IMG/VR virus record: IMGVR_UViG_3300035146_000010
Source: a virus
Length of the DNA: 64,000 nt
Strand: one strand, 5' to 3'
A program made the position numbers and the translations under genes. A model generated the notes under the pieces. That model saw only the letters and a list, made by a program, of their open reading frames with translations. It was not told where the DNA came from and made no database searches. This document shows positions 3,103 to 60,178 of the stretch, piece by piece (position 1 is the stretch's first letter; each line of letters opens with the position of its first letter).

Positions 3103-3513
3103 ATGGACGAAAAAGAGTTTATAGAAAATATTAAAAATTTAGACAGGACAGAAAAACAATTTGTTGAAATTGTTAATAACTTGTTTCAAGACAAGGGATT
3201 AGAAAGCAGACTAATTATAAAAGATAATTCTGATCCTGAAGTTGACTTGGCTTTCAGTTTACACGGCCCGACAAGCGAAGAACAACAGGCTGCTGAAATT
3301 GTGAGCACTGCAATGAAGACATACACCATAAATGGATGTAAAAATGTTATTCATGGGAATATTGGACAAAACCATGAATTACGTGATTTAGAAATTGTAG
3401 AAAAACAAATAAAAATGATGTTGCACTTGCATGAGAAAACAGCACAGCAACTAGGACTAACACCGGAAGAATACGAAAACCGGATGGACAAATTATTTGA
3501 AAGCCTACATTAA
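3103..3513 (+). CDS. Hypothetical protein
   Basis: 136-aa ORF with the consensus RBS cassette aaaaggagaaataaaATG. Confidence 0.6.
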   Translation: MDEKEFIENIKNLDRTEKQFVEIVNNLFQDKGLESRLIIKDNSDPEVDLAFSLHGPTSEEQQAAEIVSTAMKTYTINGCKNVIHGNIGQNHELRDLEIVEKQIKMMLHLHEKTAQQLGLTPEEYENRMDKLFESLH

Positions 3514-7483: not shown

Positions 7484-8005
7484 ATGATTAAATATAAAAA
7501 CATACAATTAAAATCAGTTTATGATTTAACACATTATTTAAAAAATATGTCGATAAAAGATAAATCATATTTATTTATTCGGGAGAATGAATATAAAATT
7601 GAAAGCACGATATGGGAAGAAATGTTTGAAATTTATCTAGAGACTATTCCGGTTGGTTTTGTGTATATCAATAAGCAAGTGGAACACCGTAAAGCTGTTA
7701 TTAATGGAATATATATTATTCCTGAATATAGAACCGCACATATTGCATTAATGGCAATGTTATGTGTTTGTGTTTATATTTTTAATTTTTTAGGATATAA
7801 TAAAATAGAATCATCTACAATCGAACATAATAGTCCCAGTTATGTGTTTCAGGATTCCTATATGAAAAAGGAAGGAACACAAATACAGTCATTGTATTAT
7901 CAAAGAAAGTTTTATGATCAAAGTCTCTTTGGTTTACGTTTGTTTGAGTTTGAAGAATTATTAGAAAAACATAAAATTAAATTAAGCGATGTTAGAATAA
8001 TATGA
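7484..8005 (+). CDS. GNAT-family acetyltransferase-like protein
   Basis: INGIYIIPEYR...ALMAMLCVCVYIFNFLGYNKIESSTIEHNSPS resembles the RimJ/RimL-type GNAT core. The stop overlaps the terL start. Confidence 0.4.
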   Translation: MIKYKNIQLKSVYDLTHYLKNMSIKDKSYLFIRENEYKIESTIWEEMFEIYLETIPVGFVYINKQVEHRKAVINGIYIIPEYRTAHIALMAMLCVCVYIFNFLGYNKIESSTIEHNSPSYVFQDSYMKKEGTQIQSLYYQRKFYDQSLFGLRLFEFEELLEKHKIKLSDVRII

Positions 8006-9507
8006 CAAGTGTAAATTCTATGATTGCCGGAGATTTTGCGGCACAAATGTATAGAGAGTTAGAAATGAGACAATTAGCACGGTCTCATTTAGCTCCCTTT
8101 ACGCAGTACCTGTTCCCCATGTATCAACTAACAGGGATACATAAAGAGTATGCACAAATATTAACATTGTTTGCGCGGGGAGAAATAAAAAAATTAATTA
8201 TTTCAATGCCGCCTCAGCATGGTAAATCAGAATTGTCTACTTTGCGACTTCCGGCATTTATGTTTGGACAGAATCCAAATTTAAAAGCTGCAATTGCTAG
8301 TTATAACGCAACAAAGGCACGGGGATTTAATACAAAGCTGCAACGGATCATTGCAGATCCATTATATTTTAATTTGTTCCCGGAAACAACTATCAGTAGT
8401 ACTCCTTTTAGCCAAAAGTCTAAAACGGGAATGAAGTTTCAAAGAAAACAAGAAGAATTTGAAATAATAAATTATCAGGGTAGTTGTAAAGCGGTGGGAA
8501 GAGGGGGAGCCCTTACCGGTGACCCGGTGGATTTAATCCTTATGGATGATTTATACAAAGATTATGCGGAAGGGAATAGTCCTGTTGTTCGGGAAACGGT
8601 AATTGATTGGTATACTGCGGTTGTTCGTACAAGACTGCATAACAATAGTCAGCAATTAATTGTTTTTACCCGGTGGAACGAAGAAGATTTAATTGGATTT
8701 ATAGAAAGGTCGGACGACGAAAAGGTTATTTTACTTACCGAAAAAACACAATTAAATAATATTGACATTGATGCCTGGTATAAAATTAATTTCCCTGCTC
8801 TTGCAACAAAAGAATCGGAATTAAATGAATTTGATGGAAGAAAAGAGGGTGAACCGTTATGGCCGGAAAGACATAGCCAAAAAAAATTAATAAACGATAG
8901 AAACTTAGACGAAGAAAAATTTGAGTCCCTACATCAAGGAGATCCGAAGCCTTCTAAAGGATTATTATATAAAGGATTTAATATTTACATAACTAAGCCG
9001 GCCTTTAAGTGGAGAAAAAATTATACAGACGTTGCCGACACGGGAAAAGATTATTTGTGTAGTATTTGCTATGAAGTCGGAGTAGACGACATGATATATA
9101 TTACTGATATTTATTATACAGACGAACCGCAGGATAAAACAGAAATTGAAACGGCCGAATTATTAGACCGGAACAAAGTTAATATTGCATATGTAGAAAG
9201 TAATGCCGGTGGCCGGGCCTTTGCAAGAAATGTAGACGGGTTTACAAAGGGCCGGCATGTGTTGGAAACATTTTATCAGGGAGACAATAAGGAAAGCCGG
9301 ATTATTTCTAATTCAGCAGCTATACAAAGAAAAATTTTATTTCCCATAAACTGGACTACGCGGTGGCCAGAATTTGCAAGGGACATATTACGATTTAAAA
9401 GAAATTTTAAAGCAAATTCACATGATGATGCACCGGACGCTTTAACAGGAGTTTATGAAAAAAGCGGGTTGGCTCCAATTGATACAAAATCATTGTGGAG
9501 AAAATAA
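8002..9507 (+). CDS. terL: Terminase large subunit
   Basis: Walker A-like MPPQHGKSE, Walker B LILMDDLY, and C-terminal nuclease motif SHDDAPDALTG. Confidence 0.9.
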   Translation: MTSVNSMIAGDFAAQMYRELEMRQLARSHLAPFTQYLFPMYQLTGIHKEYAQILTLFARGEIKKLIISMPPQHGKSELSTLRLPAFMFGQNPNLKAAIASYNATKARGFNTKLQRIIADPLYFNLFPETTISSTPFSQKSKTGMKFQRKQEEFEIINYQGSCKAVGRGGALTGDPVDLILMDDLYKDYAEGNSPVVRETVIDWYTAVVRTRLHNNSQQLIVFTRWNEEDLIGFIERSDDEKVILLTEKTQLNNIDIDAWYKINFPALATKESELNEFDGRKEGEPLWPERHSQKKLINDRNLDEEKFESLHQGDPKPSKGLLYKGFNIYITKPAFKWRKNYTDVADTGKDYLCSICYEVGVDDMIYITDIYYTDEPQDKTEIETAELLDRNKVNIAYVESNAGGRAFARNVDGFTKGRHVLETFYQGDNKESRIISNSAAIQRKILFPINWTTRWPEFARDILRFKRNFKANSHDDAPDALTGVYEKSGLAPIDTKSLWRK

Positions 9508-9509
9508 AA

Positions 9510-9692
9510 ATGGAAAATGAAAAACTATATAGAATAGAATTATATTATGCAGTATTCGGAATTGTAGTAAATGTAAAAGATAATATTATCGTAGATGCGC
9601 CCCCTATAGCGCGTTGGATGGTAGGAAAACCGTTAGCTAAAATTAAAGTTTGGGTTGATAAGAAAAACGGTACAATTACAAAGATAAAATAA
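9510..9692 (+). CDS. Hypothetical small protein
   Basis: ATG after GGAGAAAATAAAA. Product begins MENEKLYRIELYY. Confidence 0.5.
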   Translation: MENEKLYRIELYYAVFGIVVNVKDNIIVDAPPIARWMVGKPLAKIKVWVDKKNGTITKIK

Positions 9693-9703
9693 AGGAGAAA
9701 ATA

Positions 9704-10351
9704 ATGAAATGTTTTTATTGTGGATCAAATTGTGATAAAAAATATTCAATAAAAGAATATGTAAAAAAAACGTTTACAAATTATGATATAGTGGCTTGTC
9801 CTGATTCTCAATATGTCTGTGATGATTGTGTTTGGGCATTTGGCAGCAATTCTGAAATACAAATGATAGATGGAGAAATTAGAAATGGAAGTCCCCGTAA
9901 TTATTCCTGGTTTATAACAAAAAATAAAAAAATAGCATTTACTAAAAAGCATATTGAGGAAATAAAATATTTATTATTTCATATCAAAAAAAAACCATTC
10001 AAATTAGTTATTGCAGATTCTGGACAAAAGCATTTATTATTTAGAGCTCCATGGAACTTTGATAAAAATAATTTTATATTGCAGTTTGAGGAACAACAAA
10101 TTATAGTTGATTTGAAGGAATTGGCAAAACGAATATTTATATGTAATAGACTAAGTGCTGCTATAGGAAAAGTAGCAATATTGAATCCTGATAAAGTACA
10201 ATATGCAATAGCTGTTCAAAAATACTGGAATGATTTAATTGAGTATGAGAAATGGCTCAAAATACATATGCAACCATTGTCACAGTTGGCGGTATGGTTA
10301 GCAAAAAATAAACAGGAGGCTCAAAATGAATATCAATCAGTTAACACCTGA
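9704..10351 (+). CDS. csf1: Csf1-like (type IV Cas8-like) protein with N-terminal Cys cluster
   Basis: CFYCGSNC...CPDSQYVCDDC zinc-finger-like N-terminus. About 215 aa. First gene of the csf1-cas11-cas7-cas5 order. Confidence 0.5.
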   Translation: MKCFYCGSNCDKKYSIKEYVKKTFTNYDIVACPDSQYVCDDCVWAFGSNSEIQMIDGEIRNGSPRNYSWFITKNKKIAFTKKHIEEIKYLLFHIKKKPFKLVIADSGQKHLLFRAPWNFDKNNFILQFEEQQIIVDLKELAKRIFICNRLSAAIGKVAILNPDKVQYAIAVQKYWNDLIEYEKWLKIHMQPLSQLAVWLAKNKQEAQNEYQSVNT

Positions 10352-10766
10352 AGAGTTCCGTTTAAAAATAGCAGGGCTATTGGACCCGCTGGGACAAATG
10401 GATGATTTGGGTAAAAAATCAATGGAAGATGAGGTTATAAGATTTGTATCAATATTGCCTGAAGTGTTTGGTGATAATTTGGACCGCAAAACACTATGGG
10501 AACGAATTGGCAATGGACTTGTTTCTTCATTGGCAAAAGCCGGTGGTGATGTTGAACTTTTTGTTAATCATTGTTTGGATTATGTTAAAGCAGATAGTGG
10601 TAAAGCTGCAGCAAATGAAAATTTACATTATTTTATTTCGACATTATCAACAAGAGATAAAGAATGGAAACAACAATTTCTACGTACAATTGAAAAAAAA
10701 CATTATCTTATTATTGTTAAATCCCGTGATACTTGGAATAAAAATAAAAAGGGAGGCACGAAATGA
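10326..10766 (+). CDS. cas11: Cas11-like small helical subunit
   Basis: 146-aa protein that reads as helical. Sits between the csf1-like and cas7-like genes and overlaps both neighbours. Confidence 0.4.
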   Translation: MNINQLTPEEFRLKIAGLLDPLGQMDDLGKKSMEDEVIRFVSILPEVFGDNLDRKTLWERIGNGLVSSLAKAGGDVELFVNHCLDYVKADSGKAAANENLHYFISTLSTRDKEWKQQFLRTIEKKHYLIIVKSRDTWNKNKKGGTK

Positions 10767-11707
10767 ATAAAACAGTAAGACCAAAAGTAAAACGTAGAAA
10801 AAAAGATATAGGAACAGTTAAAGTTCATTGTGTGTCTGAGACTTTGTCCCCATTAACGCACATGATGGAGACAGCTGGAAATGAGTCAATAATCAATAGG
10901 GAAAAGGTTATCCATAATGGTATGGAAAAATGGATACCTGTTTTGTCTGGAAATTCAATTCGTCATAAATTAATTCGTGATTCCGGTATGCATTATCTTC
11001 TTAATGCATGTAGCATGAGAAAGAAAATTGACATTAAACAGGCTAATTTTTTGTTTTATGGCGGTGGATTAACTGAAAGCAGCAACTCTGAGAAAATGAA
11101 AGAAATTGCCGAAATGTATGAATTGTTTCCACTTGTGAGGCTATTAGGGGCAAGTCTTCCGTGGCAAATAGTTGCAGGAAGTCTCATTGTGTTTCGCGGG
11201 AAATTAATTTGTGAAGAAAATAAACATTTTATTTATGAGTTATTGCCCGAAAAATTTGATATTGATTTGAATTGTCAACTGAAATCAAGTGAAGATTTTA
11301 TTCACGCATATCAATATACAAGAGGCGATATTACTCGACATAAGGATGTTGTTGAGATCGTTTCTCAAGATGAATTAGCATCGGATAAAAAAACCGGTTT
11401 AATGATTTATAACGGACAATGCATTATTACCGGATCATTATTTTATCACGGCTTTATCTTGAATAGAATATCGCGTAAAGAGGTCGGTGCCTTTTTTTTA
11501 TCTTTGGAAACATGGCAGGAATCCGGTGCGTTTCTTGGTGGCTATTCAAGAATTGGACATGGTAAATTGAAATTGAACGTCATGATCGAAGACAGCAAGG
11601 ATTTTATTTCCGCCAGCGATATTGACGACTGCATTGACGAATACATTAATCATGTTGAGGTTAATAAAGCCAAGTGTATCGAATGGCTTGATAAAAATTT
11701 TAAGTGA
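10763..11707 (+). CDS. csf2: Csf2 / Cas7-like RAMP protein
   Basis: IPVLSGNSIRHKLIRD (RAMP G-x-S-hR-G/H-xhR type motif) and C-terminal glycine loop GGYSRIGHGKL. ATGA overlap with the upstream gene. Confidence 0.7.
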   Translation: MNKTVRPKVKRRKKDIGTVKVHCVSETLSPLTHMMETAGNESIINREKVIHNGMEKWIPVLSGNSIRHKLIRDSGMHYLLNACSMRKKIDIKQANFLFYGGGLTESSNSEKMKEIAEMYELFPLVRLLGASLPWQIVAGSLIVFRGKLICEENKHFIYELLPEKFDIDLNCQLKSSEDFIHAYQYTRGDITRHKDVVEIVSQDELASDKKTGLMIYNGQCIITGSLFYHGFILNRISRKEVGAFFLSLETWQESGAFLGGYSRIGHGKLKLNVMIEDSKDFISASDIDDCIDEYINHVEVNKAKCIEWLDKNFK

Positions 11708-11715
11708 GGTCGTTT

Positions 11716-12396
11716 ATGGCAATAGAAAATTTTAAAGTAACGGCTTATTTGGTTGCACCAGTGGTGGGGGAAATACCACCACTGGACTCATTGTTGACTT
11801 ATCAGCTTGCATTTTATATGAATACATTCAAATCAAAAAAATATACAAAAGCAACACCTATAACTGAATTTGAACGTTTGCCGATACCGCTTACTGAATA
11901 TGATGTTGGAGGAGATAAAGTTAACTGTTGTTCTGATCCGGTTTATATAATTGAAACAGAATGGCATGATAAATTGGCAAAAAGATTTGAAACAGATATG
12001 CTTAGCACAATCATAGATCCACTAAAGAGAAAAACCATTAATATAGGGGGTGGGTATTTACGTTCAAGATTTCAGACGCTGCATGCTAAAATAATTAGTA
12101 GGGTGGTTTGGTTTGCTAGGGGGGACTCTGAGCAGGCATTACGATTATTGAAATATGTTAACTCGCTTGGTTATTTTAGAAAAATAGGATATGGTATTGT
12201 AAATAAATGGAATGTTGAAATAATAAAGGAAAATTTTTCAATATCCGCGCGGTGCTCCGGGAAAAAAATATTGATGAAGACTCTGCCTGTTTGTGATGCT
12301 ACTCGAAACATGGACGGTATTCGTTATGGATTTGGTGCATACAAACCACCCTACTGGCATCCAGAAAATCAGTGTGAGGTTGTGGTTCCATGTTAA
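11716..12396 (+). CDS. csf3: Csf3 / Cas5-like RAMP protein
   Basis: N-terminal VAPVVGEIPPLDSLLTYQLAF and C-terminal LGYFRKIGYGIVNKW glycine loop. ATG with GAGG RBS. Confidence 0.6.
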   Translation: MAIENFKVTAYLVAPVVGEIPPLDSLLTYQLAFYMNTFKSKKYTKATPITEFERLPIPLTEYDVGGDKVNCCSDPVYIIETEWHDKLAKRFETDMLSTIIDPLKRKTINIGGGYLRSRFQTLHAKIISRVVWFARGDSEQALRLLKYVNSLGYFRKIGYGIVNKWNVEIIKENFSISARCSGKKILMKTLPVCDATRNMDGIRYGFGAYKPPYWHPENQCEVVVPC

Positions 12397-12935
12397 ATGG
12401 TTATTATATAATACAACAATACGCAAATGTGATTCAGGATTATCCATTGTTTTTTACTTTTGCTAAAAAAAATAAATTATGGAAGTATATTTATCCACAC
12501 TATAGGTGGGACGTGTTGCAAATTATAGCACTTGTTTGCCTGTCTCCTGGAACTCTAAATGAAAAATATAATTTTTTACAAAGAGAACTTTATTATTTTT
12601 ATAATAAAATTGTTTGTACTTTTCATTTAAAAAAGAAAAATAAATGCAAACAAAAAAGGAGTATACCAAAACATAAAAATCATTGCGATATTTGTGGAAA
12701 AGATAAATTAGAATATATGACTAAATCATTATTTCCTGGAAAAAAAGTTTGTAATTATTGTTATATGCAGCATAAGCGCAAGTATGTGAATAAATATTAT
12801 GGGCGTCTGATAAAAACATGTGAATTATGTGGAAAAGAAACAAGAACAGGATTATATACAAGTGTTTTTCCTGGAAAAAAAGTTTGTATGAGCTGCTATC
12901 AAAAAGAAATGTATAGAAGGAAAAAAAAAAAATGA
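12390..12935 (+). CDS. Protein with two tandem zinc-ribbon units
   Basis: Repeated C..CGK-x(n)-FPGKKVC..CY units. Start overlaps the csf3 stop (ATGTTAA). Confidence 0.6.
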   Translation: MLNGYYIIQQYANVIQDYPLFFTFAKKNKLWKYIYPHYRWDVLQIIALVCLSPGTLNEKYNFLQRELYYFYNKIVCTFHLKKKNKCKQKRSIPKHKNHCDICGKDKLEYMTKSLFPGKKVCNYCYMQHKRKYVNKYYGRLIKTCELCGKETRTGLYTSVFPGKKVCMSCYQKEMYRRKKKK

Positions 12936-13345
12936 GAGTGGTTTTATATAATGTTGGACGTAATTTAAATCGTGCATATCGTACTTGTTTTAGTTTTGGA
13001 ATTGAAAAATTAATTTTAGTAAATTCACAGGATATAAGTATAAAATGGGAATTGAAAGGAAATCTGTTTGAAGCAAAAAATAAAGTTAAAATAATAGAAA
13101 CTAACATGATGCCATTGATTGATATGCATACAATTGCACTCGAAAATTATTATAAACAATCTATATATAATATCACATGGAACAATCTTGATACTATACT
13201 GATAGGTGGAGAAACGAAAGGGCTCCCTAAATTGATTAGTTGCCAGAAAGCAACAATACCAACAATCAATAATTTTTGTTTGACAGTAGAGGCATCATTA
13301 GCAATTGCCCTGTCGGAATGGAGACGAAATGTTAATACAGTGTGA
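12932..13345 (+). CDS. Minimal SPOUT (SpoU/TrmH/TrmL-like) RNA methyltransferase
   Basis: MRVVLYNVGRNLNRAYRTCFSFGIEKLILV and ILIGGETKGLP...ATIPTINNFCLTVEASLAIALSEW match the N- and C-terminal blocks of TrmL-type enzymes as I recall them. Confidence 0.6.
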   Translation: MRVVLYNVGRNLNRAYRTCFSFGIEKLILVNSQDISIKWELKGNLFEAKNKVKIIETNMMPLIDMHTIALENYYKQSIYNITWNNLDTILIGGETKGLPKLISCQKATIPTINNFCLTVEASLAIALSEWRRNVNTV

Positions 13346-14042
13346 CAAGCATACACAACAGGATTTAGAAATTTGGGATAGTTATGAGGAAGCCGATTTG
13401 ATTTATTATAATAATCATAATATGGTGGAAAAAGAACAAAAAGCTATTGATACTATTATCAATTTTGATAGTGATTATGTTAGTACTTCATGGGGCAAGG
13501 ACTCAACTGTTTTGGTGCATTTGTGTTATAGGGCACAAATTAAAATACCATTGGTGTGGATTATTGTTAAAGATATTGTAAATCCTTATTGTTTTGATGT
13601 TAGAAATTATTTTTTAAAAACTTATAATGTTAATTATTATGAGATAACCGAAAGCAGGTGGTATGATGGTAATCGCTATAGGGCCACAGGTGTTTTAGAA
13701 AATGGTTTTAAAAAAGCAGTTAAACAATTTGGAAAAAAATATATATCCGGTGTACGTGCTGAAGAGTCTGGAATAAGAAAAATGTTAACAAAAATTTATG
13801 GTGTAAAGACAGAAAAAACCTGCCGTCCGTTGGCATATTGGAAACAATCAGATATTTTTGCCTATTTGGCTCATTATCAATTGCCGGTTCATCCAAATTA
13901 CGGGATGTTGGGTGGTGGGAGATATAACCGTGAACATATACGGGTTGCTTCATTGGGCATTAAAAGAGGCGATGCTTTTGATAAATTGCTATGGGAAAAA
14001 GAATACTATCAAAATGAATTAAACAAAATTGGAGGAATATAA
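13329..14042 (+). CDS. CysH-like PAPS-reductase family PP-loop protein
   Basis: STSWGKDSTVLVHLC (PP-loop variant), ISGVRAEESGIRK, and CRPLAYWKQSDIFAYL. ATG after GGAGACGAA. Confidence 0.75.
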   Translation: MLIQCDKHTQQDLEIWDSYEEADLIYYNNHNMVEKEQKAIDTIINFDSDYVSTSWGKDSTVLVHLCYRAQIKIPLVWIIVKDIVNPYCFDVRNYFLKTYNVNYYEITESRWYDGNRYRATGVLENGFKKAVKQFGKKYISGVRAEESGIRKMLTKIYGVKTEKTCRPLAYWKQSDIFAYLAHYQLPVHPNYGMLGGGRYNREHIRVASLGIKRGDAFDKLLWEKEYYQNELNKIGGI

Positions 14043-14043
14043 A

Positions 14044-15285
14044 ATGGTAATGGAAGCACTGCGCACAGACGGCTGGTCAAATTTAATTGCCGGTATCGGT
14101 GTAAAGAAAAAAGATAAAACAGAAAATACATATTTTGTTGAAGATTATATTTTGGAAGATGAAGACTTGTCCGCGTTGTATGATGGAGAAGGACTGGCGG
14201 CAAATATAATTGATGCTGTACCGGATGATATGACACGGGCCGGGTGGACAATAGCAAATGACGAAAAAGAAAAAATACAAAATGAAATGAAAAGGATTAA
14301 AGCGGTATATTATTTAAACAAGGCATTAAAATATGCCCGTCTATATCGTGGGGCTATTGTTGTTATGATTACAGAGCGGGGAGAATTAGACAAGCCTATA
14401 CCGGCTAATCCTGGAAATGTAAAACGCCTGCGTGTATATTCTGCAAAAAGAATAATATTAACATCAACTGATATTGTAGAAGATCCGAATTCAGAATATT
14501 TTGATGACGTTGAAATATTTCATGTTTTAACCCGTTCCGGGAAAATGCTAGATATACATAGATCGCGTTGTTTGTGGTTTGGAGGCGAACTTGTATCTGA
14601 TGATTTTGAATTAGATCTTACCTATCAATATTGGGGACTGTCTACAATGCAAAGAATATGGGCCCGGTTAAAAAATTACGGAGCAGTGGAAAGGGCTGTT
14701 GCAAATTTGCTTTTGGAGTTTAATTTGGGGATATATGAATTTTCTAATTTAGCTGAAATATTAGCTATGAATAAAGAAGAAATGATGAGTGCTGTATACA
14801 CACGGTTAGAAGCTATAAACGCATGCAAGTCTATGTTAAACGCTGTTATGATCGGTGAAGGGGAGTCTTTTACAAGGGACTCTGCGAACCTGTCCGGTTT
14901 AGCGGACATTATAGATAGAATGATGATTAATTTAACCGGTGTTGCAAAGATCCCGGCAACTAAATTATTTCGGCGATCTCCTGCGGGAATGAATGCGACA
15001 GGCGAAAGCGATATAACTAACTATTATGATGATGTGAGTACACAACAGACACAAAAACTTGAACCGGAACTGCAAAAATTAATTAATGTAATCGGAAAAG
15101 CTGTTTATGGCAGCAACAAAGAAAATAAATATACAATTACTTTTAATTCTTTGTGGGAGCCGACTGAAAAAGAAAAAGCCGAAACAAAAAAATTAAATGC
15201 GGAAACACATTCAACTGATATTGCAAATCAAGTTATAGATGCGGAAGAGTCTCGTAAAATAAGGTATCCAGATTTGGAGGTATAG
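14044..15285 (+). CDS. Portal protein (DUF1073-like)
   Basis: N-terminal RTDGWSNLIAGIG..KKDK...LSALYDGEGLAANII..VPDDMTRAGW pattern. Size and position relative to terL also fit. Confidence 0.75.
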   Translation: MVMEALRTDGWSNLIAGIGVKKKDKTENTYFVEDYILEDEDLSALYDGEGLAANIIDAVPDDMTRAGWTIANDEKEKIQNEMKRIKAVYYLNKALKYARLYRGAIVVMITERGELDKPIPANPGNVKRLRVYSAKRIILTSTDIVEDPNSEYFDDVEIFHVLTRSGKMLDIHRSRCLWFGGELVSDDFELDLTYQYWGLSTMQRIWARLKNYGAVERAVANLLLEFNLGIYEFSNLAEILAMNKEEMMSAVYTRLEAINACKSMLNAVMIGEGESFTRDSANLSGLADIIDRMMINLTGVAKIPATKLFRRSPAGMNATGESDITNYYDDVSTQQTQKLEPELQKLINVIGKAVYGSNKENKYTITFNSLWEPTEKEKAETKKLNAETHSTDIANQVIDAEESRKIRYPDLEV

Positions 15286-18512: not shown

Positions 18513-18643
18513 ATAAGTAAATGGCAACTGTGAAATTAAAATTGGAGGTGATGTCTATTGGATTAAAATAAAACTATAAATTACATACTAACACTTTGTG
18601 TATAAGATTTTAAGATTTTAGTACTTGATGACTCTATGCAGAT

Positions 18644-18737
18644 AGCCGGGTGGCGGAAGTGGAAGACGCGCCAAGGGATTGCCTTGGTGGGGGTAATAAC
18701 AAATAACTCCGTGCAGGTTCGATTCCTGCCCCGGCAA
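18644..18737 (+). tRNA. Class II (long variable arm, Leu-like) tRNA scaffold with a non-canonical anticodon loop
   Basis: Canonical elements: U8, D-arm GCGG-AAGUGGAAGA-CGC with G18G19, and T-arm GCAGG-UUCGAUU-CCUGC. The variable arm has a 5-bp stem. The acceptor is GCCGGG/CCCGGC with an A/A at positions 1-72, followed by A. The anticodon stem CCAAG/CUUGG closes the loop GGAUUGC, which lacks U33. Confidence 0.55.
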
Positions 18738-18861
18738 AGAAAAGTCCAACCGTAGCTGGTCATTGCGGATATGGCTATTAGTACCGGTACTTGTCCGGAA
18801 CAAGTTGCTAGTAAGAAAATAAAAACCTAGACCCGCTTTTTACTTTCGATTTAAACCAGTG

Positions 18862-37149: not shown

Positions 37150-38559
37150 ATGGCATATACAACAATTAGTCCGCCTGATTTTGATCCGGCAACCAGTTTA
37201 AATTTAACTGACATTTTATGGGCAATGCAGGGAGTAGCAGCGGACAGGGACAAACAAGTTCCATTATCTCTACTAAAAGAATTTATCAACACAGACATAA
37301 CGTTGACCGGAACAATGATTCACGGGCCGGGCAATTATACAGTTTCTACTCAGGCCGGATTTAATGAACTGATAGAACGAACTGCCGCGAATACATATAA
37401 ACTTAAAGACGAAGTAATTACAATAAAATTAAAATACTTGTCTGGCGGTTATTTGTGTTATGGCGGGACTTCTTATTTATCGGACGGCGATACCTGGGGA
37501 GTATTGCAGACAAATAATTGTACCCGGTTTGAAATAGAAGACGGCGGGCATTTAGCAGTCGGGGACGAACCATTTCAATTATATATAGAAGAGGGCGGTT
37601 ACTTTAAAGTTCCATGTGAGGGGATAGGCTCAGCCGCTTTTTCTGCAACTGATACTAGTAGTCATTTTTTCTGTGCAAATAGTGGTATAGTATTAGATCA
37701 ATGTTCAGTAAAAAATCGGCTTGTTGAAGCGGACACTATTTATAGAATTTTTCATGGTAACGTGCAAGATAATTGTCTTTTTAGAAATTGTTTTGTTCAA
37801 AATTTTAATAGTGATGCTGCCTCTGTTTTTGGTGTAGTTGTTTTTAGTCGTTGTTTTTCTGTTAATGGTTGTTGGGCAGATACTATTTCTACTGGTGCTT
37901 ATCAGCTTGAGATTTTTGCAGAATCTGGATATTTAAATAATACTAGAGCAACAAATATTTCTGGAACAGGAAATGGTGACATATTCGTTTATCATGATAA
38001 TATTGTTATTGCTGGAGCATATGTAAAAAATATTATAAATTCAACAGGCAGCGGAAATGTTTCTGGATTTTATCAATGTGATCAAATATCTGCTTGTCAA
38101 ATACAAACAATAGAAGCATATTCTGGTTCCATTTACTGTTTTTATGCATGTGATCAAATATCTGCTTGTTTTGTAGACGATGCAGAAACAGTAGACGGAA
38201 CTATTTATGGATATCAGGGTTGTAATCAAATTTCTGCGTGTAAAGCAAGTACTTTTGTCAGTACTGGAACTGGTCTTATTTTTGGATATAGACTATGTTA
38301 TGCACTATCGTCTTGCAAAGCTACAAGTTTTCAATCAAATTCTGGAAATGTATATGGATTTTATGAATGTCATGATATGGCAGCATTAATCACAACATTA
38401 TTGAGTTCTACTTCTGGTACAGTTAATGGATATTATAATTGTACTGAAGGAGCAGCGTTTGAAACAGATGTGGGAACAAATAGTGCCAATGATTATATGG
38501 ATACTGCAGACACAAATGTTACAAATAAAAATTCAATACAAGATATTTTTACAACATAA
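37150..38559 (+). CDS. Tail fiber / receptor-binding protein with C-terminal Cys-containing repeats
   Basis: Last gene of the tail module. Contains repeated G.(I/V)YGFY.C.QISAC units. Confidence 0.6.
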   Translation: MAYTTISPPDFDPATSLNLTDILWAMQGVAADRDKQVPLSLLKEFINTDITLTGTMIHGPGNYTVSTQAGFNELIERTAANTYKLKDEVITIKLKYLSGGYLCYGGTSYLSDGDTWGVLQTNNCTRFEIEDGGHLAVGDEPFQLYIEEGGYFKVPCEGIGSAAFSATDTSSHFFCANSGIVLDQCSVKNRLVEADTIYRIFHGNVQDNCLFRNCFVQNFNSDAASVFGVVVFSRCFSVNGCWADTISTGAYQLEIFAESGYLNNTRATNISGTGNGDIFVYHDNIVIAGAYVKNIINSTGSGNVSGFYQCDQISACQIQTIEAYSGSIYCFYACDQISACFVDDAETVDGTIYGYQGCNQISACKASTFVSTGTGLIFGYRLCYALSSCKATSFQSNSGNVYGFYECHDMAALITTLLSSTSGTVNGYYNCTEGAAFETDVGTNSANDYMDTADTNVTNKNSIQDIFTT

Positions 38560-39321: not shown

Positions 39322-39407
39322 TTTAGACCTCCAATTTTAATTTTTGTCCTGTCTCTTCAGTGCCGGGTGGACAGTTCCGGCAGACGCCCATAAGGGCGTT
39401 TCGACTT

Positions 39408-58515: not shown

Positions 58516-59088
58516 GTGAAAAAAAGAAAAAATACAAGTCGCTACGATTGTTTAGAAATTGAAAAGCAAGAAAGCGAAGAAAAAGAACAGAAACCTCAAA
58601 ATGATTATGAAAAAGATTTAAAAATTAACAAGTATGATCTTGTTAATGAATTTAATAATCATCCGTTTTTGTATATGAAATATGTCAAGCTGGCAACGGA
58701 AGCGGATATTGAGGTAAGGAGGCTTAGAGAAAAAGTTGATTTTATCAAGGCAGAATTATACGTGCGTATTCGGGAAGAACGGGAAATGGCTAAGGAAAAG
58801 GTTACAGAGACAATTTTGGATAGTCTAATAAAGTTGGATGATAACTATCAAAAAGCATATGAAGACTATTTAGTAGAATTAGAAAACAGCAAAATATTGT
58901 CCGGGGCGGTAGAGGCTTTTTCACAAAGAAAATCCGGGCTGGAAAACACAGTAAAATTATTTTTGAATAATTATTATTCTCATCCTGTTGAGAGTAATGA
59001 TGAAAATAAAAGATCTCTGGAACAAGAGGGATTACAAAAACTTTCAAGGAAAAAAAGGAGAAAAACTAATGACAAAAAAGAGAAATAA
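58516..59088 (+). CDS. Coiled-coil protein upstream of SSB (recombination mediator candidate)
   Basis: GTG start after GGAGAG. Assignment is by position only. Confidence 0.45.
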   Translation: MKKRKNTSRYDCLEIEKQESEEKEQKPQNDYEKDLKINKYDLVNEFNNHPFLYMKYVKLATEADIEVRRLREKVDFIKAELYVRIREEREMAKEKVTETILDSLIKLDDNYQKAYEDYLVELENSKILSGAVEAFSQRKSGLENTVKLFLNNYYSHPVESNDENKRSLEQEGLQKLSRKKRRKTNDKKEK

Positions 59089-60178
59089 AAAAGGCAAAAA
59101 AAAAGGTAGTGTGAGTGATGCTCTCCGGAAGAGTGTAGACAACAGTGTAGAGGAAAGAAGCTCTGAGGGAACCGGATACGGAATTTTAAATTTTTCCAAT
59201 TTGGATGTGAGTACTGATGAACTGCCTTTTTTTAAACCGAATAAAGGGAAAAACAGAATTGATGTGATCCCGTTTTGGGTAGAAACAGATAAACATCCGT
59301 CTGAAAGCGCCCGAAAAAATGGGGCAGATTATCGGATAAATGTTCATGTACATAAAGGCCTGGGCCCGGATAGAAACAAAACGTTGATCTGTCTGGAAGA
59401 AACGTATGGTAAACCATGTCCTGTTTGTGAAAAAAGACGAAAATTGCAGGAACAGGGAGCGAGTGCAGATTTAATTAAGATGTTAAAACCACAGTACCGG
59501 GTTTTGTACAATGTGATAGATTTGGACAATGAGGAAAAAGGGATTCAAATTATGGATGTTGCCTATTACTCATTTGAGAGGAATATTGTGGATGATGTTA
59601 CTGACGGAAAAAAGGGACGGATATATTTTCCTGATCTGGAAAATGGAAGTACAATTATTTTTAAAGCAAAACCCAGTAAATTTCAAGGTCATTCTTTTAT
59701 GAAAATTCTGGAAGGGAGTTTTGCTCTGGAAGATCGGGAAGAGGCTTATGAAGAATCTATTGTTGATGAAGCTTTTAAACTGGATGAAATGCTTATTGTT
59801 CCCACATATGAAGAAGCTAAAAAATTGGTTAATATGGTATCAGATGAAGATATGGATGAAGACGAAGATGATGATGATTGGGATGATGATGACGATAACG
59901 AAGTAGAGGAAGAAGAAGACGATTTTGATGATGACGATGATGATTGGGATGATGATGACGAAGATGATTATGACGATGATGATGATTGGGATGATGATGA
60001 CGATAACGAAGTAGAGGAAGAAGAAGACGATTTTGATGATGACGATGATGATGAAATAGAGGAAGAGCCCAAAAAATCGGTTAAACGCAAAAAGTCAACA
60101 ACTGAAAAAAAGACGAAAAAACCGGCAAAAACAAAAAGCATAAAATCTAAAAAGACGAAAACCAGGAATAGAAAATGA
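59069..60178 (+). CDS. gp32-like ssDNA-binding protein with a long acidic repeat tail and a basic end
   Basis: Zinc site H...CPVCEKRRK, OB-like core, and a DDDDWDDDDDNEVEEEEDDFDDDDDD duplication. ATG after AAGGAG. Confidence 0.65.
   Translation: MTKKRNKKGKKKGSVSDALRKSVDNSVEERSSEGTGYGILNFSNLDVSTDELPFFKPNKGKNRIDVIPFWVETDKHPSESARKNGADYRINVHVHKGLGPDRNKTLICLEETYGKPCPVCEKRRKLQEQGASADLIKMLKPQYRVLYNVIDLDNEEKGIQIMDVAYYSFERNIVDDVTDGKKGRIYFPDLENGSTIIFKAKPSKFQGHSFMKILEGSFALEDREEAYEESIVDEAFKLDEMLIVPTYEEAKKLVNMVSDEDMDEDEDDDDWDDDDDNEVEEEEDDFDDDDDDWDDDDEDDYDDDDDWDDDDDNEVEEEEDDFDDDDDDEIEEEPKKSVKRKKSTTEKKTKKPAKTKSIKSKKTKTRNRK
59870..60053 (+). repeat. 108-nt-period direct duplication inside the SSB acidic tail
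   Basis: gatgatgattgggatgatgatgacgataacgaagtagaggaagaagaagacgattttgatgatgacgatgatgat occurs at 59870 and again at 59978. Confidence 0.85.

Follow-up and report, generated by a model that had tools for sequence, protein, structure and literature searches.

A type IV-B cassette between the terminase and portal genes of a tailed phage

The stretch of DNA analysed here (64,000 nucleotides, referred to below as the window) is part of a myovirus-like phage genome of about 65 kb, in which a set of CRISPR-Cas type IV-B genes lies between the terminase and portal genes. All of the open reading frames in this interval were assigned, and they are listed here with the two flanking genes and the two zinc ribbons encoded within one of them.

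8002..9507, plus strand: terminase large subunit, upstream flank (phrog_38, 4e-87)
9704..10351, plus strand: csf1, type IV large subunit, Cas8-like, with an N-terminal Cys-rich zinc finger (PADLOC typeIV_Cas8, 1e-62; TIGR03114, 4e-12, under the equivalog cut-off)
10326..10766, plus strand: cas11, type IV small subunit (PADLOC typeIV_Cas11, 2.7e-44; same position kept in related loci L001-L004)
10763..11707, plus strand: csf2, Cas7 backbone subunit (PADLOC typeIV_Cas7, 8e-84; TIGR03115, 7e-11; phrog_22746, 2e-72)
11704..12396, plus strand: csf3, Cas5 (PADLOC typeIV_Cas5, 1e-32; TIGR03116, 7e-8)
12390..12935, plus strand: ZnR, clade-specific zinc-ribbon protein of 181 aa (open reading frame; homologs P0039, P0040, L002:6492-7004 and L001:3796-4290)
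12684..12761, plus strand: zinc ribbon unit 1 of ZnR (C99, C102, C121, C124), in all homologs
12819..12896, plus strand: zinc ribbon unit 2 of ZnR (C144, C147, C166, C169), a 135-nt tandem duplication, phage-specific and missing from the homologs
12932..13345, plus strand: SPOUT, predicted minimal SpoU/TrmH-class methyltransferase of 137 aa, Csf-associated family (PF00588, motifs, AF2/Foldseek, linkage)
13329..14042, plus strand (frame open from 13305): cysH-like, PP-loop / PAPS-reductase-fold protein (PF01507, 6e-11; phrog_2302, 4e-25)
14029..15285, plus strand: portal protein, downstream flank (PF06381, 1.6e-85)

By gene content and profile matches the cassette is predicted to be a complete type IV-B system (csf1-cas11-csf2-csf3-…-cysH-like), and the flanking terminase places the operon in the head/packaging (head-morphogenesis) module of a tailed phage. 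As the preliminary description had stated, two translationally coupled genes are inserted between csf3 and the cysH-like gene: ZnR and csf3 share 7 nt at the csf3 stop, and the stop of ZnR and the start of SPOUT lie within one ATGA. At the downstream edge, the portal frame has an ATG at 14044, directly after the cysH-like stop.

No DinG helicase or Cas10-like HD subunit was found among the open reading frames between terminase and portal; helicases encoded elsewhere in the window match ResIII/Helicase_C, DnaB_C and SNF2-type helicase models. The 64-kb window likewise has no CRISPR array, cas6 or adaptation genes. Its sole 30-nt repeat pair, at 38068/38140, was considered as a mini-CRISPR array and rejected, as it lies inside a 469-aa open reading frame (37150-38559). 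No candidate RNA gene was found near the operon, and a GC-rich hairpin within csf3 (11758-11785) was discarded as a conserved RNA element on finding that relatives do not keep it. Scans for promoters and terminators were uninformative in this AT-rich DNA. The phage also encodes a tRNA-like gene. An archaeal (Nitrosopumilaceae) host, as given by the NCBI bin label, was judged unlikely, the RecA, DnaB, PolA and clamp-loader genes being of bacterial type. Neither the operon nor Csf2 nor SPOUT had a match in 50,697 deposited phage genomes (blastn and tblastn), so there is no cultured relative or curated annotation to draw on.

The last gene of the cassette bears out the earlier call of a PP-loop enzyme in the module. 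Its start is most likely ATG 13329 rather than TTG 13305, because the resulting N-terminus (MLIQC...) fits those of its homologs. An alignment of 14 family members shows an invariant, PP-loop-like S-x-G-K-[DQ]-S motif, kept here as S-x-G-K-D-S, and the family profile matches structures of PAPS reductase and CysD. The protein nevertheless does not classify as a PAPS reductase (CysH proper): it scores 42.8 bits against the 154 needed for NF002537, and the ECG[LI]H-type C-terminal cysteine motif, sought by eye in the same alignment, occurs in 0 of the 14 members. A jackhmmer 'CysH' match at 3103-3513 of the window was set aside as probable profile drift.

ZnR carries a duplicated zinc ribbon

ZnR consists of a helical N-terminal domain (aa ~9-79), a basic linker and two tandem zinc ribbons, which form the C-terminal end as two CxxC...PGKKVCxxC units (aa 99-124 and 144-169) set 45 aa, or 135 nt, apart. 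The duplication is visible in the DNA, as had been noted before: TTTCCTGGAAAAAAAGTTTGTA occurs exactly twice in the gene, at 12732 and 12867, and a further 20-nt pair (12684/12819) is 80% identical. A 22-nt exact repeat within the 546 nt of ZnR is not a product of chance. The homologs P0039, P0040, L002 and L001 keep the N-terminal ~90 aa and have a single zinc ribbon each; because they carry only one, the second ribbon is a lineage-specific duplication, and because they keep the N-terminal region, ATG 12390 is supported as the start of ZnR. The 139-aa protein called by NCBI is truncated.

No Pfam or PADLOC family lies above threshold for ZnR, its Pfam, NCBIfam and PHROG matches amounting to sub-threshold zinc-finger noise. 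Among these, a DksA/TraR C4 zinc finger was rejected, as both cut-offs were missed (PF01258, 13.8 vs 24.9 bits; NF008243, 16.8 vs 96). The AF2 model is of moderate confidence (pLDDT 71) and found no significant structural neighbour with Foldseek.

SPOUT is a minimal member of the SpoU/TrmH class

The 137-aa protein encoded by the second inserted gene matches PF00588 (SpoU_methylase) over residues 2-126 with an E-value of 1.8e-7 and 31.8 bits, where 29.7 are required, and most of its homologs carry a precomputed PF00588 assignment. Across 34 aligned family members the three SpoU motifs vary little or not at all, and among the residues kept in this way are N11, R17, G92, E94, I109 and L117-E120. 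These motifs align to NLSAILRT, GAE..G and IPM...SLNVS of TrmH, with N11, R17 and E94 falling on Asn35, Arg41 and the Glu of motif 2 in TrmH; in motif 3 the SPOUT family has an invariant Thr (Thr118) where TrmH has Asn. The AF2 model is confident (pLDDT 85.8, pTM 0.82) and its Foldseek matches are without exception SpoU/TrmH enzymes (TrmH, TrmL, RlmB and TrmJ, with TM scores of 0.76-0.80); over the whole chain it aligns with the knotted structures 1v2x, 4kdz and 6qh8 ('knotted YibK') at TM 0.74-0.80. By sequence the relationship is distant, as phmmer found no match among PDB sequences and TrmH/YibK were reached by the family profile only, not by the single sequence.

The earlier assignment to TrmL/TrmH-type SPOUT enzymes therefore stands in part. 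Profile, motifs and predicted fold confirm SPOUT as a member of the SpoU/TrmH class and a predicted methyltransferase; orthology with TrmL (the tRNA Um34/Cm34 methyltransferase) is ruled out by a TIGR00185 score of 15.9 against 190.6 bits, and every NCBIfam equivalog cut-off was missed. SPOUT shares with TrmL, TrmH, TrmJ and RlmB the fold, the three SpoU motifs, the motif-1 Arg and Asn and the motif-2 Glu, and it is of TrmL-like size. It differs from them in identity (12-24% among the listed fold matches), in motif 1 (NLNRAYRT rather than N.GA..R), in the motif-3 Thr, and in that SPOUT genes adjoin Csf and CysH genes only and are often fused to a phosphatase. Pfam and the AF2 model reveal no RNA-recognition extension of its own.

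SPOUT is linked to Csf and CysH-like genes and is repeatedly joined to phosphatases

About 17 distinct loci were retrieved through SPOUT. The CysH-like gene is present in all of them and Csf genes in all but one, the exception (L020) being cut by the contig end, in at least six gene orders and at GC contents of 23-67%. Conserved linkage with csf genes, raised earlier for both inserted genes, thus holds for SPOUT but not for ZnR, whose linkage is confined to one AT-rich phage clade in which its place in the locus varies. The SPOUT family comprises about 70 clusters in 1.84 billion protein representatives; it gave 3 matches in 185,579 species genomes and none in 72,556 plasmids or 50,697 deposited phage records, so that, as far as sequence searches tell, it occurs almost only beside type IV-B operons. 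It is also the most conserved component across loci, at 31-76% identity against 19-25% for Csf2.

The picture from the Csf side is different. A search for related loci from a single Csf2 found none and Csf2 alignments offered no usable conserved stretch, so this side was sampled through six individual Csf2 homolog contexts, which are not a census. Five of the six are plain IV-B loci without SPOUT, one of them with a 60% identical Csf2. The core Csf system therefore works without SPOUT, which is an optional add-on.

Phosphatases recur as partners. Fusions of SPOUT to a PTP or HAD phosphatase account for 23% of 73 representatives and occur in both orders (7 PTP::SPOUT, 8 SPOUT::PTP, 1 HAD::SPOUT and 1 SPOUT::HAD), with Cx5R[ST] intact in most phosphatase-SPOUT fusions. 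Separate PTP genes are found in loci L005, L006, L008 and L013, and L012 has a metallophosphatase; among solved structures, lambda phosphatase and the CthPnkp 2',3'-phosphatase domain (4J6O) come nearest to it, and ApaH-type Np4N hydrolases are also related to it. The PTP partners resemble phosphoanhydride phosphatases of the Siw14/PFA-DSP kind more than any known RNA 3'-phosphatase. In the window's own clade no phosphatase was detected in the cluster or elsewhere.

Two further contexts deserve mention. In L008 a Cas6 gene and a 9-repeat CRISPR array lie beside PTP-SPOUT-CysH; none of its spacers matched the loci retrieved here, nor did either of the two spacer cores searched against the viral collection find a match there. 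In L020 and L023 the genes directly ahead of SPOUT encode a DndC/DndB-resembling pair, made up of a ParB-like protein and an IbrA-like PAPS_reduct+DUF3440 protein.

Comparison with known systems

Type IV-B is the one CRISPR-Cas subtype of still-unknown function, array-less and nuclease-less and with an enigmatic CysH-like partner (PMC8175902, PMC11656645). Its complex binds heterogeneous RNA without sequence specificity, and RNA co-purifies with it (PMC7937560). The canonical system on a Mycobacterium sp. JS623 plasmid (PMC7937560) resembles the phage cassette in its four effector genes and their order, in the cysH-like accessory gene, in having no array, cas6 or adaptation genes, and in its location on a mobile element. 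The phage cassette differs in the insertion of ZnR and SPOUT between csf3 and cysH and in its carrier, a lytic-type tailed phage with the genes in the head-morphogenesis module, whereas canonical systems reside on a plasmid or ICE. The type IV-B system of a Bathyarchaeia 'Fuxiviridae' virus (PMC10848311) is likewise a virus-encoded effector set with a CysH-like protein and has a mini-array, for which the array of the relative L008 is a parallel. Its description mentions neither SPOUT nor a phosphatase or zinc-ribbon gene, however, and the virus is archaeal, in contrast to the bacterial-type replication genes of the window. The reviews consulted name only CysH-like, ADP-ribosyltransferase and RecD genes as linked to IV-B (PMC8175902, PMC11656645). 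The preliminary description was not aware of any account of a Cas7/Cas5 filament combined with an RNA methyltransferase and a PP-loop enzyme; our literature searches likewise found none, and we regard the operon as a variant of the known type IV-B system.

Beyond CRISPR-Cas, a parallel in logic is bacterial Pnkp-Hen1, which likewise combines a ribose-freeing phosphatase, a 2'-O-methyltransferase and an ATP-using adenylating enzyme; the phosphatase domain of CthPnkp (4J6O) is among the relatives of the L012 metallophosphatase. This likeness is one of analogy, not membership: SPOUT has a predicted knot and not the Rossmann fold of Hen1, the ATP enzyme is of the PP-loop / PAPS-reductase fold, the scaffold would be a Cas7 filament, the window itself is without a phosphatase, and no operon protein matched polynucleotide kinase, RNA ligase or Hen1-type methyltransferase families.

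A possible RNA end-marking function

The preliminary description had proposed an RNA-modifying complex rather than a nuclease, an idea that gains from the phosphatases fused to or neighbouring SPOUT and from the Cas6 and array of L008. RNA methylation by SPOUT, and any thiolation-type role of the PP-loop enzyme, are putative. For at least the SPOUT-bearing branch, the substrate is argued to be RNA because a SpoU-class enzyme only sensibly acts on a ribose 2'-OH and the SPOUT family occurs almost only beside these cassettes; the recurring phosphatase fusions would further point to a ribose that bears a phosphate, in the simplest case at an RNA end. We infer that SPOUT is an accessory enzyme dedicated to phage type IV-B complexes, which methylates the 2'-O position of RNA ribose and probably does so to mark an end of the RNA.

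As we envisage it, Csf1, Cas11, Csf2 and Csf3 would build a Cas7 filament on RNA and the Csf complex would bring SPOUT to that RNA, in the window's clade probably via the translationally coupled ZnR. SPOUT would then move a methyl group from S-adenosylmethionine onto a ribose 2'-OH, and the CysH-like PP-loop enzyme may carry out the ATP-driven activation (adenylation) of a further group on the same substrate. Because sister SPOUT domains are fused to, or encoded beside, a phosphomonoesterase, the favoured site is the terminal ribose, which would first be cleared of a 2',3'-cyclic, 2'- or 3'-phosphate; Cas6 and most defence RNases leave ends of this kind. The benefit to the phage would be 2'-O-methyl-marked RNA that withstands transesterifying RNases and exonucleases, with a chemical logic as in Pnkp-Hen1. 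We put forward this scheme as a whole, with ZnR and SPOUT as accessory parts of a phage-borne, array-less Csf system, with a confidence that falls slightly short of even. The Siw14/PFA-DSP-like character of the PTPs, the motif-3 Thr, the internal-site habit of SpoU enzymes, the Csf2-side loci without SPOUT and the want of a candidate RNA gene near the operon count against the scheme, and the end-healing step may not apply to the window's clade, since no phosphatase was found there.

The internal-site habit lends itself to a different proposal, which we regard as unlikely: Csf complexes with SPOUT (plus phosphatase and CysH-like protein) could be RNA-guided or RNA-scaffolded modifiers in which the Cas7-bound RNA pairs with a target and so sets the positions at which the tethered SPOUT methylates internal 2'-OH groups. 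To our knowledge all characterised SpoU enzymes (TrmH, TrmL, TrmJ, RlmB), the top fold matches of SPOUT, methylate internal nucleotides and none acts on termini. A bona fide array and Cas6 adjoin PTP-SPOUT-CysH in L008, and SPOUT has no RNA-recognition domain of its own. The concept would make the complex a CRISPR-derived analogue of the box C/D sRNP/snoRNP, where an RNA-protein complex positions a 2'-O-methyltransferase by base-pairing, albeit with unrelated proteins (the Rossmann-fold methyltransferase fibrillarin, L7Ae and Nop5) and with a guide-chosen site that is not in evidence here. Array and Cas6 are missing from the window and most relatives, however, the L008 spacers found no partner in the searches described above, internal sites hardly explain the recurrent phosphatase fusions, and the published IV-B complex bound heterogeneous RNA with no sequence specificity (PMC7937560). 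If true, guided or scaffolded methylation would mean that CRISPR effector scaffolds can serve a non-nucleolytic purpose of the RNA-editing type, and might yield a programmable 2'-O-methylation tool.

The phosphatases could also point to the opposite end of the RNA, trimming a 5'-tri- or diphosphate; adenylylation of the 5' phosphate would then fall to the CysH-like enzyme and methylation of the 2'-OH on the first nucleotide to SPOUT, giving a cap-1-like mark by which RNA is hidden or stabilised. The affinity of the PTPs to phosphoanhydride-hydrolysing Siw14/PFA-DSP enzymes, the ApaH-type relatives of the L012 metallophosphatase and the PP-loop motif of the CysH-like proteins all suit such a mark, and the cysteine-phosphatase superfamily does include RNA 5'-triphosphatases (metazoan capping enzyme, BVP, PIR1). 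Yet HAD fusions exist as well, for which we know of no 5'-polyphosphatase precedent; we know of no PP-loop enzyme that adenylylates RNA 5' ends; and the window's clade has no phosphatase. We consider a 5' mark distinctly improbable.

It is very doubtful that RNA is not the substrate at all, and that CysH-like protein, SPOUT and phosphatase act on a nucleotide or small molecule (such as an immune signalling nucleotide whose 2'-OH and phosphate groups are free) or on the DNA backbone in a Dnd/IbrAB-like manner, with Csf as scaffold or sensor. The DndC/DndB-resembling pair ahead of SPOUT in L020 and L023, the small phosphorylated molecules on which PFA-DSP-like PTPs work and the want of an RNA-binding extension in the minimal SPOUT would agree with this, but the SpoU motifs, catalytic Arg included, are strictly kept, and we know of no SpoU-class enzyme acting on anything other than RNA. 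Cas7, Cas5 and Cas11 are, moreover, RNA-binding scaffolds, and RNA co-purifies with IV-B complexes (PMC7937560).

SPOUT might instead be an ordinary tRNA/rRNA 2'-O-methyltransferase, turned by the phage on its own or the host's translation RNAs, for example to blunt anticodon nucleases, that merely shares a moron island with Csf. A weak similarity to TrmL, the tRNA-like gene of the phage and the many related Csf loci that do without SPOUT speak for this. Its strict co-location with CysH-like genes (and with Csf, save in the contig-cut L020) despite shuffled orders and very different hosts, the near absence of the family from cellular genomes, plasmids and other phages, the stop-start overlaps between the operon's genes and a TIGR00185 score of 15.9 bits against the 190.6 needed make this highly improbable. 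That SPOUT is a catalytically dead, purely structural or dimerisation subunit, as the motif-3 Asn-to-Thr change, its very small size (137 aa) and a Pfam score barely over threshold could hint, is scarcely credible, for N11, R17, G92, E94, the IP motif and LTVEA are invariant in a family otherwise 31-76% identical, as expected of an active site kept by selection, and TrmL enzymes are active at a length of about 150 aa.

Returning to the end-marking proposal, the linkage of SPOUT, together with its frequent fusion to phosphatases, is the first concrete clue that type IV-B complexes may chemically modify RNA. If the modification were guide-directed, these operons would be CRISPR-derived systems whose function forms a class of its own, with potential as a tool; if it protects RNAs from defence RNases, it would amount to a new way for phages to counter defence.

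Two added genes in a phage-borne type IV-B cassette

Seven genes run gap-free on one strand between terminase and portal, with overlapping stops and starts.

Cassette and flanking genes (E, PADLOC Cas profile)
8002-9507: terminase large subunit
9704-10351: csf1 (E = 1e-62)
10326-10766: cas11 (E = 3e-44)
10763-11707: csf2 (E = 8e-84)
11704-12396: csf3 (E = 1e-32)
12390-12935: ZnR, zinc-ribbon protein
12932-13345: SPOUT, methyltransferase-family protein
13305/13329-14042: cysH-like
14029-15285: portal

NCBIfam agrees with PADLOC at lower scores, and the composition matches the published definition of type IV-B (PMC8175902), the cassette conforming to each defining feature of gene content that was tested. 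The two coupled genes reported in the preliminary description between the csf3-like and cysH-like genes are confirmed, within a cassette that is complete by PADLOC and encodes an entire IV-B RNA-binding scaffold. The 64-kb window contains neither a CRISPR array nor cas6 nor adaptation genes. The CysH-like protein is of the PP-loop type, and in the family alignment it is missing the C-terminal cysteine motif typical of reductases. A perfect 10-bp GC-rich hairpin (CCAGTGGTGG…CCACCACTGG; 11758-11785, + strand) inside the csf3 5' end is not conserved in related loci.

The window constitutes the bulk of a ~65-kb tailed phage genome, with further structural genes (Mu-F-like minor head protein, head protease, major head protein, tail sheath, tape measure and baseplate) and bacterial-type replication genes (UDG-fused family A polymerase, DnaB, clamp loader and RecA). 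Identical proteins occur in an NCBI MAG labelled Nitrosopumilaceae archaeon (contig 65,406 bp, PVI88_ locus tags), a label we read, in view of the bacterial-type genes, as a binning artefact; with its myovirus structural genes and its RecA, DnaB, PolA and clamp loader of bacterial type, the contig is probably a mis-binned bacteriophage. The cassette (9704-14042 in the window) always lies within the head-morphogenesis module when compared with related loci L001-L004, between terminase and portal in the window and between portal and Mu-F in the relatives, which suggests late co-expression with structural genes.

Other features of the window
18643-18738 (+): 96-nt tRNA-like gene, tRNA-Asn(att) by ARAGORN, with long variable arm and atypical anticodon loop; Rfam adds just a tRNA-Sec match below threshold (23.4 bits)
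39343-39406 (-): type II hammerhead ribozyme (Rfam RF02276, 40.7 bits versus gathering score 37); CUGAnGA/GAAA/GUC core intact; 58% GC versus 33% for the genome
54848-57391: family A DNA polymerase with N-terminal uracil-DNA-glycosylase-superfamily domain, also at 22-2505 of L023, another SPOUT-positive phage
59843-60052: 108-nt GAT/GAA-rich tandem duplication, an Asp/Glu-rich tract within ORF 58988-60178

SPOUT and ZnR proteins

The 137-aa SPOUT protein exceeds the Pfam SpoU_methylase threshold (31.8 versus 29.7 bits), and all three SpoU motifs (NLNRAYRT..FG; IGGE..G.P; IP…LTVEA.LAI.L.E) show little or no variation across 34 aligned family members, in keeping with its original assignment. Aligning the family profile to T. 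thermophilus TrmH places N11 and R17 on the Asn and Arg of NLSAILRT and E94 on the motif-2 Glu, with Thr118 replacing the motif-3 Asn. The expected fold for 12932-13345 is supported by a confident AF2 model (pLDDT 85.8, pTM 0.82), whose best 50 PDB neighbors listed are all SpoU/TrmH-class SPOUT proteins (whole-chain TM up to 0.80): the characterized RNA 2'-O-methyltransferases TrmH, TrmL/YibK, RlmB, TrmJ, CspR, RlmR, NHR/TSR, AviRb and TARBP1, and otherwise putative RNA methyltransferases of the SpoU/TrmH family. Judged by sequence conservation, SPOUT belongs to the SpoU class, and selection acts strongly on its active-site pattern. Orthology to TrmL was rejected (TIGR00185, 15.9 versus 190.6 bits).

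The family is small: searching 1.84 billion representatives exhaustively with its profile gave 68 proteins at E ≤ 1e-10. Three matches, all MAG contigs, were found in 185,579 species genomes and none in 72,556 plasmids or 50,697 deposited phages, and a viral structure library contained no phage counterpart. No other protein of the cassette is as conserved as SPOUT, with 31-76% identity between loci where Csf2 shares 19-25%.

ZnR (181 aa) ends in two CxxC…PGKKVCxxC units spaced 45 aa apart, and the DNA-level duplication first noticed there is real: an exact 22-mer recurs (12732, 12867), and a 20-mer at 12684 has an 80% identical copy at 12819. Four homologs (P0039, P0040, L002:6492-7004 and L001:3796-4290) retain a basic linker and the N-terminal ~90 residues (LFFTFAK.N, YP.Y..D..QII, LQRELY.F), which supports ATG 12390 as the true start; all four carry a single ribbon, so the second arose by recent duplication. 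In the AF2 model (pLDDT 71) a helical N-domain is followed by two units, each a ribbon plus a helix; it has no significant structural neighbor, and no curated family (Pfam, NCBIfam, PHROG, PADLOC profiles) matches above threshold. Among the loci compared, ZnR is confined to an AT-rich clade, and in L001 it lies upstream of csf1.

SPOUT is a dedicated but optional accessory in CysH/Csf loci

SPOUT homologs at 36-76% identity were collected with their contexts from metagenomes, IMG/VR and GTDB genomes and annotated uniformly by iterative HMMs, yielding ~17 distinct loci (window, L001, L002, L004, L005, L006, L008, L012-L014, L016/L021, L017-L020, L022, L023). A CysH-like gene lies within a few kb of SPOUT in every one, and Csf1, Csf2 and Csf3 occur wherever there is enough flank; among such loci the association is exclusive. 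The sole locus without visible Csf genes, L020, has a contig end 2.4 kb upstream and shares its IbrA-like/ParB-like/SPOUT arrangement with the complete L023. Gene orders vary widely (Csf2-CysH-PTP-x-SPOUT-Csf3 in L005, Csf2-x-Csf3-PTP-CysH-SPOUT-Csf1 in L006, Csf1-Cas11-x-Csf2-CysH-PTP-SPOUT-Csf3 in L013), and a GC content of 23-67% indicates very diverse hosts. Immediately upstream of SPOUT, L023 (6782-8942) and L020 (769-2868) encode a long PAPS_reduct+DUF3440 (IbrA-like) protein and a ParB-like protein, a pair resembling DndC/DndB and, in L023, present besides the ordinary CysH-like gene. One SPOUT-positive phage has a radical-SAM-like gene directly 3' of cysH (L004/L015, 8120-8965).

Viewed from Csf2, the pattern differs: in six contexts sampled from 65 Csf2 homologs, SPOUT occurred in one (L023). 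The P0086 locus and L024-L027 carry plain Csf1-Cas11-Csf2-Csf3-CysH, SPOUT and ZnR being absent by tblastn on DNA from L024-L027 and by gene and Pfam list from the P0086 locus. The L027 Csf2 is 60% identical to that of the window, yet its locus lacks SPOUT. Found in one of six Csf2-side contexts, but from its own side always with CysH and, where flank suffices, with Csf, SPOUT is a dedicated but optional accessory. The csf linkage proposed for both genes holds for SPOUT as seen from its own loci, for ZnR only within one clade, and not from the Csf2 side, where five of six loci lack SPOUT. In plain IV-B cassettes, phage and chromosomal, an ~80-aa wHTH ORF between csf3 and cysH (L024 8556-8792, L025 6860-7099, L026 7589-7831) often fills the slot occupied by ZnR and SPOUT in the window; downstream of the SPOUT-negative L025 cassette lie DUF362 and radical SAM genes (8009-12191).

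Phosphatases usually accompany SPOUT outside the window's clade

In loci beyond the window's clade, SPOUT usually adjoins a phosphatase gene. The PTP-type enzymes of L005, L006, L008 and L013 have an intact HCx5R(S/T)G motif and most resemble Siw14, TpbA and plant PFA-DSPs; the small HAD-like protein of L017 bears a DxDGT motif; and L012 encodes a calcineurin-like metallophosphatase (PF00149, 9e-17), to which lambda phosphatase, the C. thermocellum Pnkp 2',3'-phosphatase domain (4J6O; PMC3675462) and ApaH-like enzymes are the nearest solved structures. Single-ORF fusions account for 17 of 73 family representatives (7 PTP::SPOUT, 8 SPOUT::PTP, 1 HAD::SPOUT, 1 SPOUT::HAD), among them P0112, P0124, P0128, P0141 and P0147, and occur at L014 6695-7453, L016 6671-7384 and L021 7671-8384. 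That fusions arose independently, in both orders and to two unrelated phosphatase folds, argues strongly that methyltransferase and phosphomonoesterase share a substrate.

A CRISPR array adjoins cas6 in the Csf/PTP/SPOUT/CysH locus L008, a Chloroflexi-labelled MAG contig (4344-4968; nine 37-nt repeats, GTTGCAACCTATTCGATCCGTTGGAGGATACAAAAAG, ending in a handle-like tail, ACAAAAAG, with 30-36-nt spacers). Its spacers matched nothing in the fetched loci, nor did two spacer cores in the viral collection.

A possible end-marking chemistry

The phosphatase partners point to a phosphate-bearing ribose, and hence to an RNA end like those left by Cas6 or defence RNases. We tentatively favor 2'-O-methylation of such an end after phosphate removal, by SPOUT acting with the Csf complex and the CysH-like enzyme. 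The Csf filament would hold an RNA whose target ribose initially bears a 2',3'-cyclic, 2'- or 3'-phosphate; a minimal SPOUT dimer would be brought to it, in the window perhaps by the translationally coupled ZnR, and would methylate the ribose 2'-OH, while the CysH-like enzyme may adenylate a further group. This order would parallel Pnkp-Hen1, in which dephosphorylation precedes a terminal 2'-O-methylation that immunizes RNA against re-cleavage (PMC3675462). Against end-marking, however, the window's clade lacks a phosphatase, close relatives dispense with SPOUT, the PTPs are similar to phosphoanhydride phosphatases, no candidate RNA gene lies near the window operon, and SPOUT has Thr for the motif-3 Asn.

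Guide-directed internal methylation of a target RNA, with an array present in L008 and absent from the window, is unlikely, and a 5' cap-like modification more unlikely again. A substrate other than RNA is improbable; that SPOUT is an independent tRNA/rRNA methyltransferase is very doubtful beside its exclusive association with CysH/Csf. An inactive subunit, Thr118 set against three conserved motifs, is hardly credible.

Earlier publications describe phages and archaeal viruses that carry type IV-B cassettes with CysH-like genes (PMC10848311, PMC11656645). The combination was initially thought undescribed, and as far as our full-text literature search reached, we found no account that links a SPOUT/SpoU methyltransferase, a phosphatase or this zinc-ribbon protein to type IV. 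A CRISPR-linked-gene census and reviews name only CysH-like, ADP-ribosyltransferase and RecD as IV-B-linked, and the association is absent from broad surveys of phage conflict systems. The RNA-modifying complex first proposed is partly supported and considerably sharpened, strengthened by the SPOUT linkage and phosphatase fusions and qualified by the restriction of ZnR to the AT-rich clade. What emerges is a phage-borne IV-B branch with an accessory set that would modify RNA ribose; for the CRISPR-Cas subtype that is understood least, this is the first chemical hypothesis specific enough to test; guide-directed methylation, if true, would be a categorically new activity.
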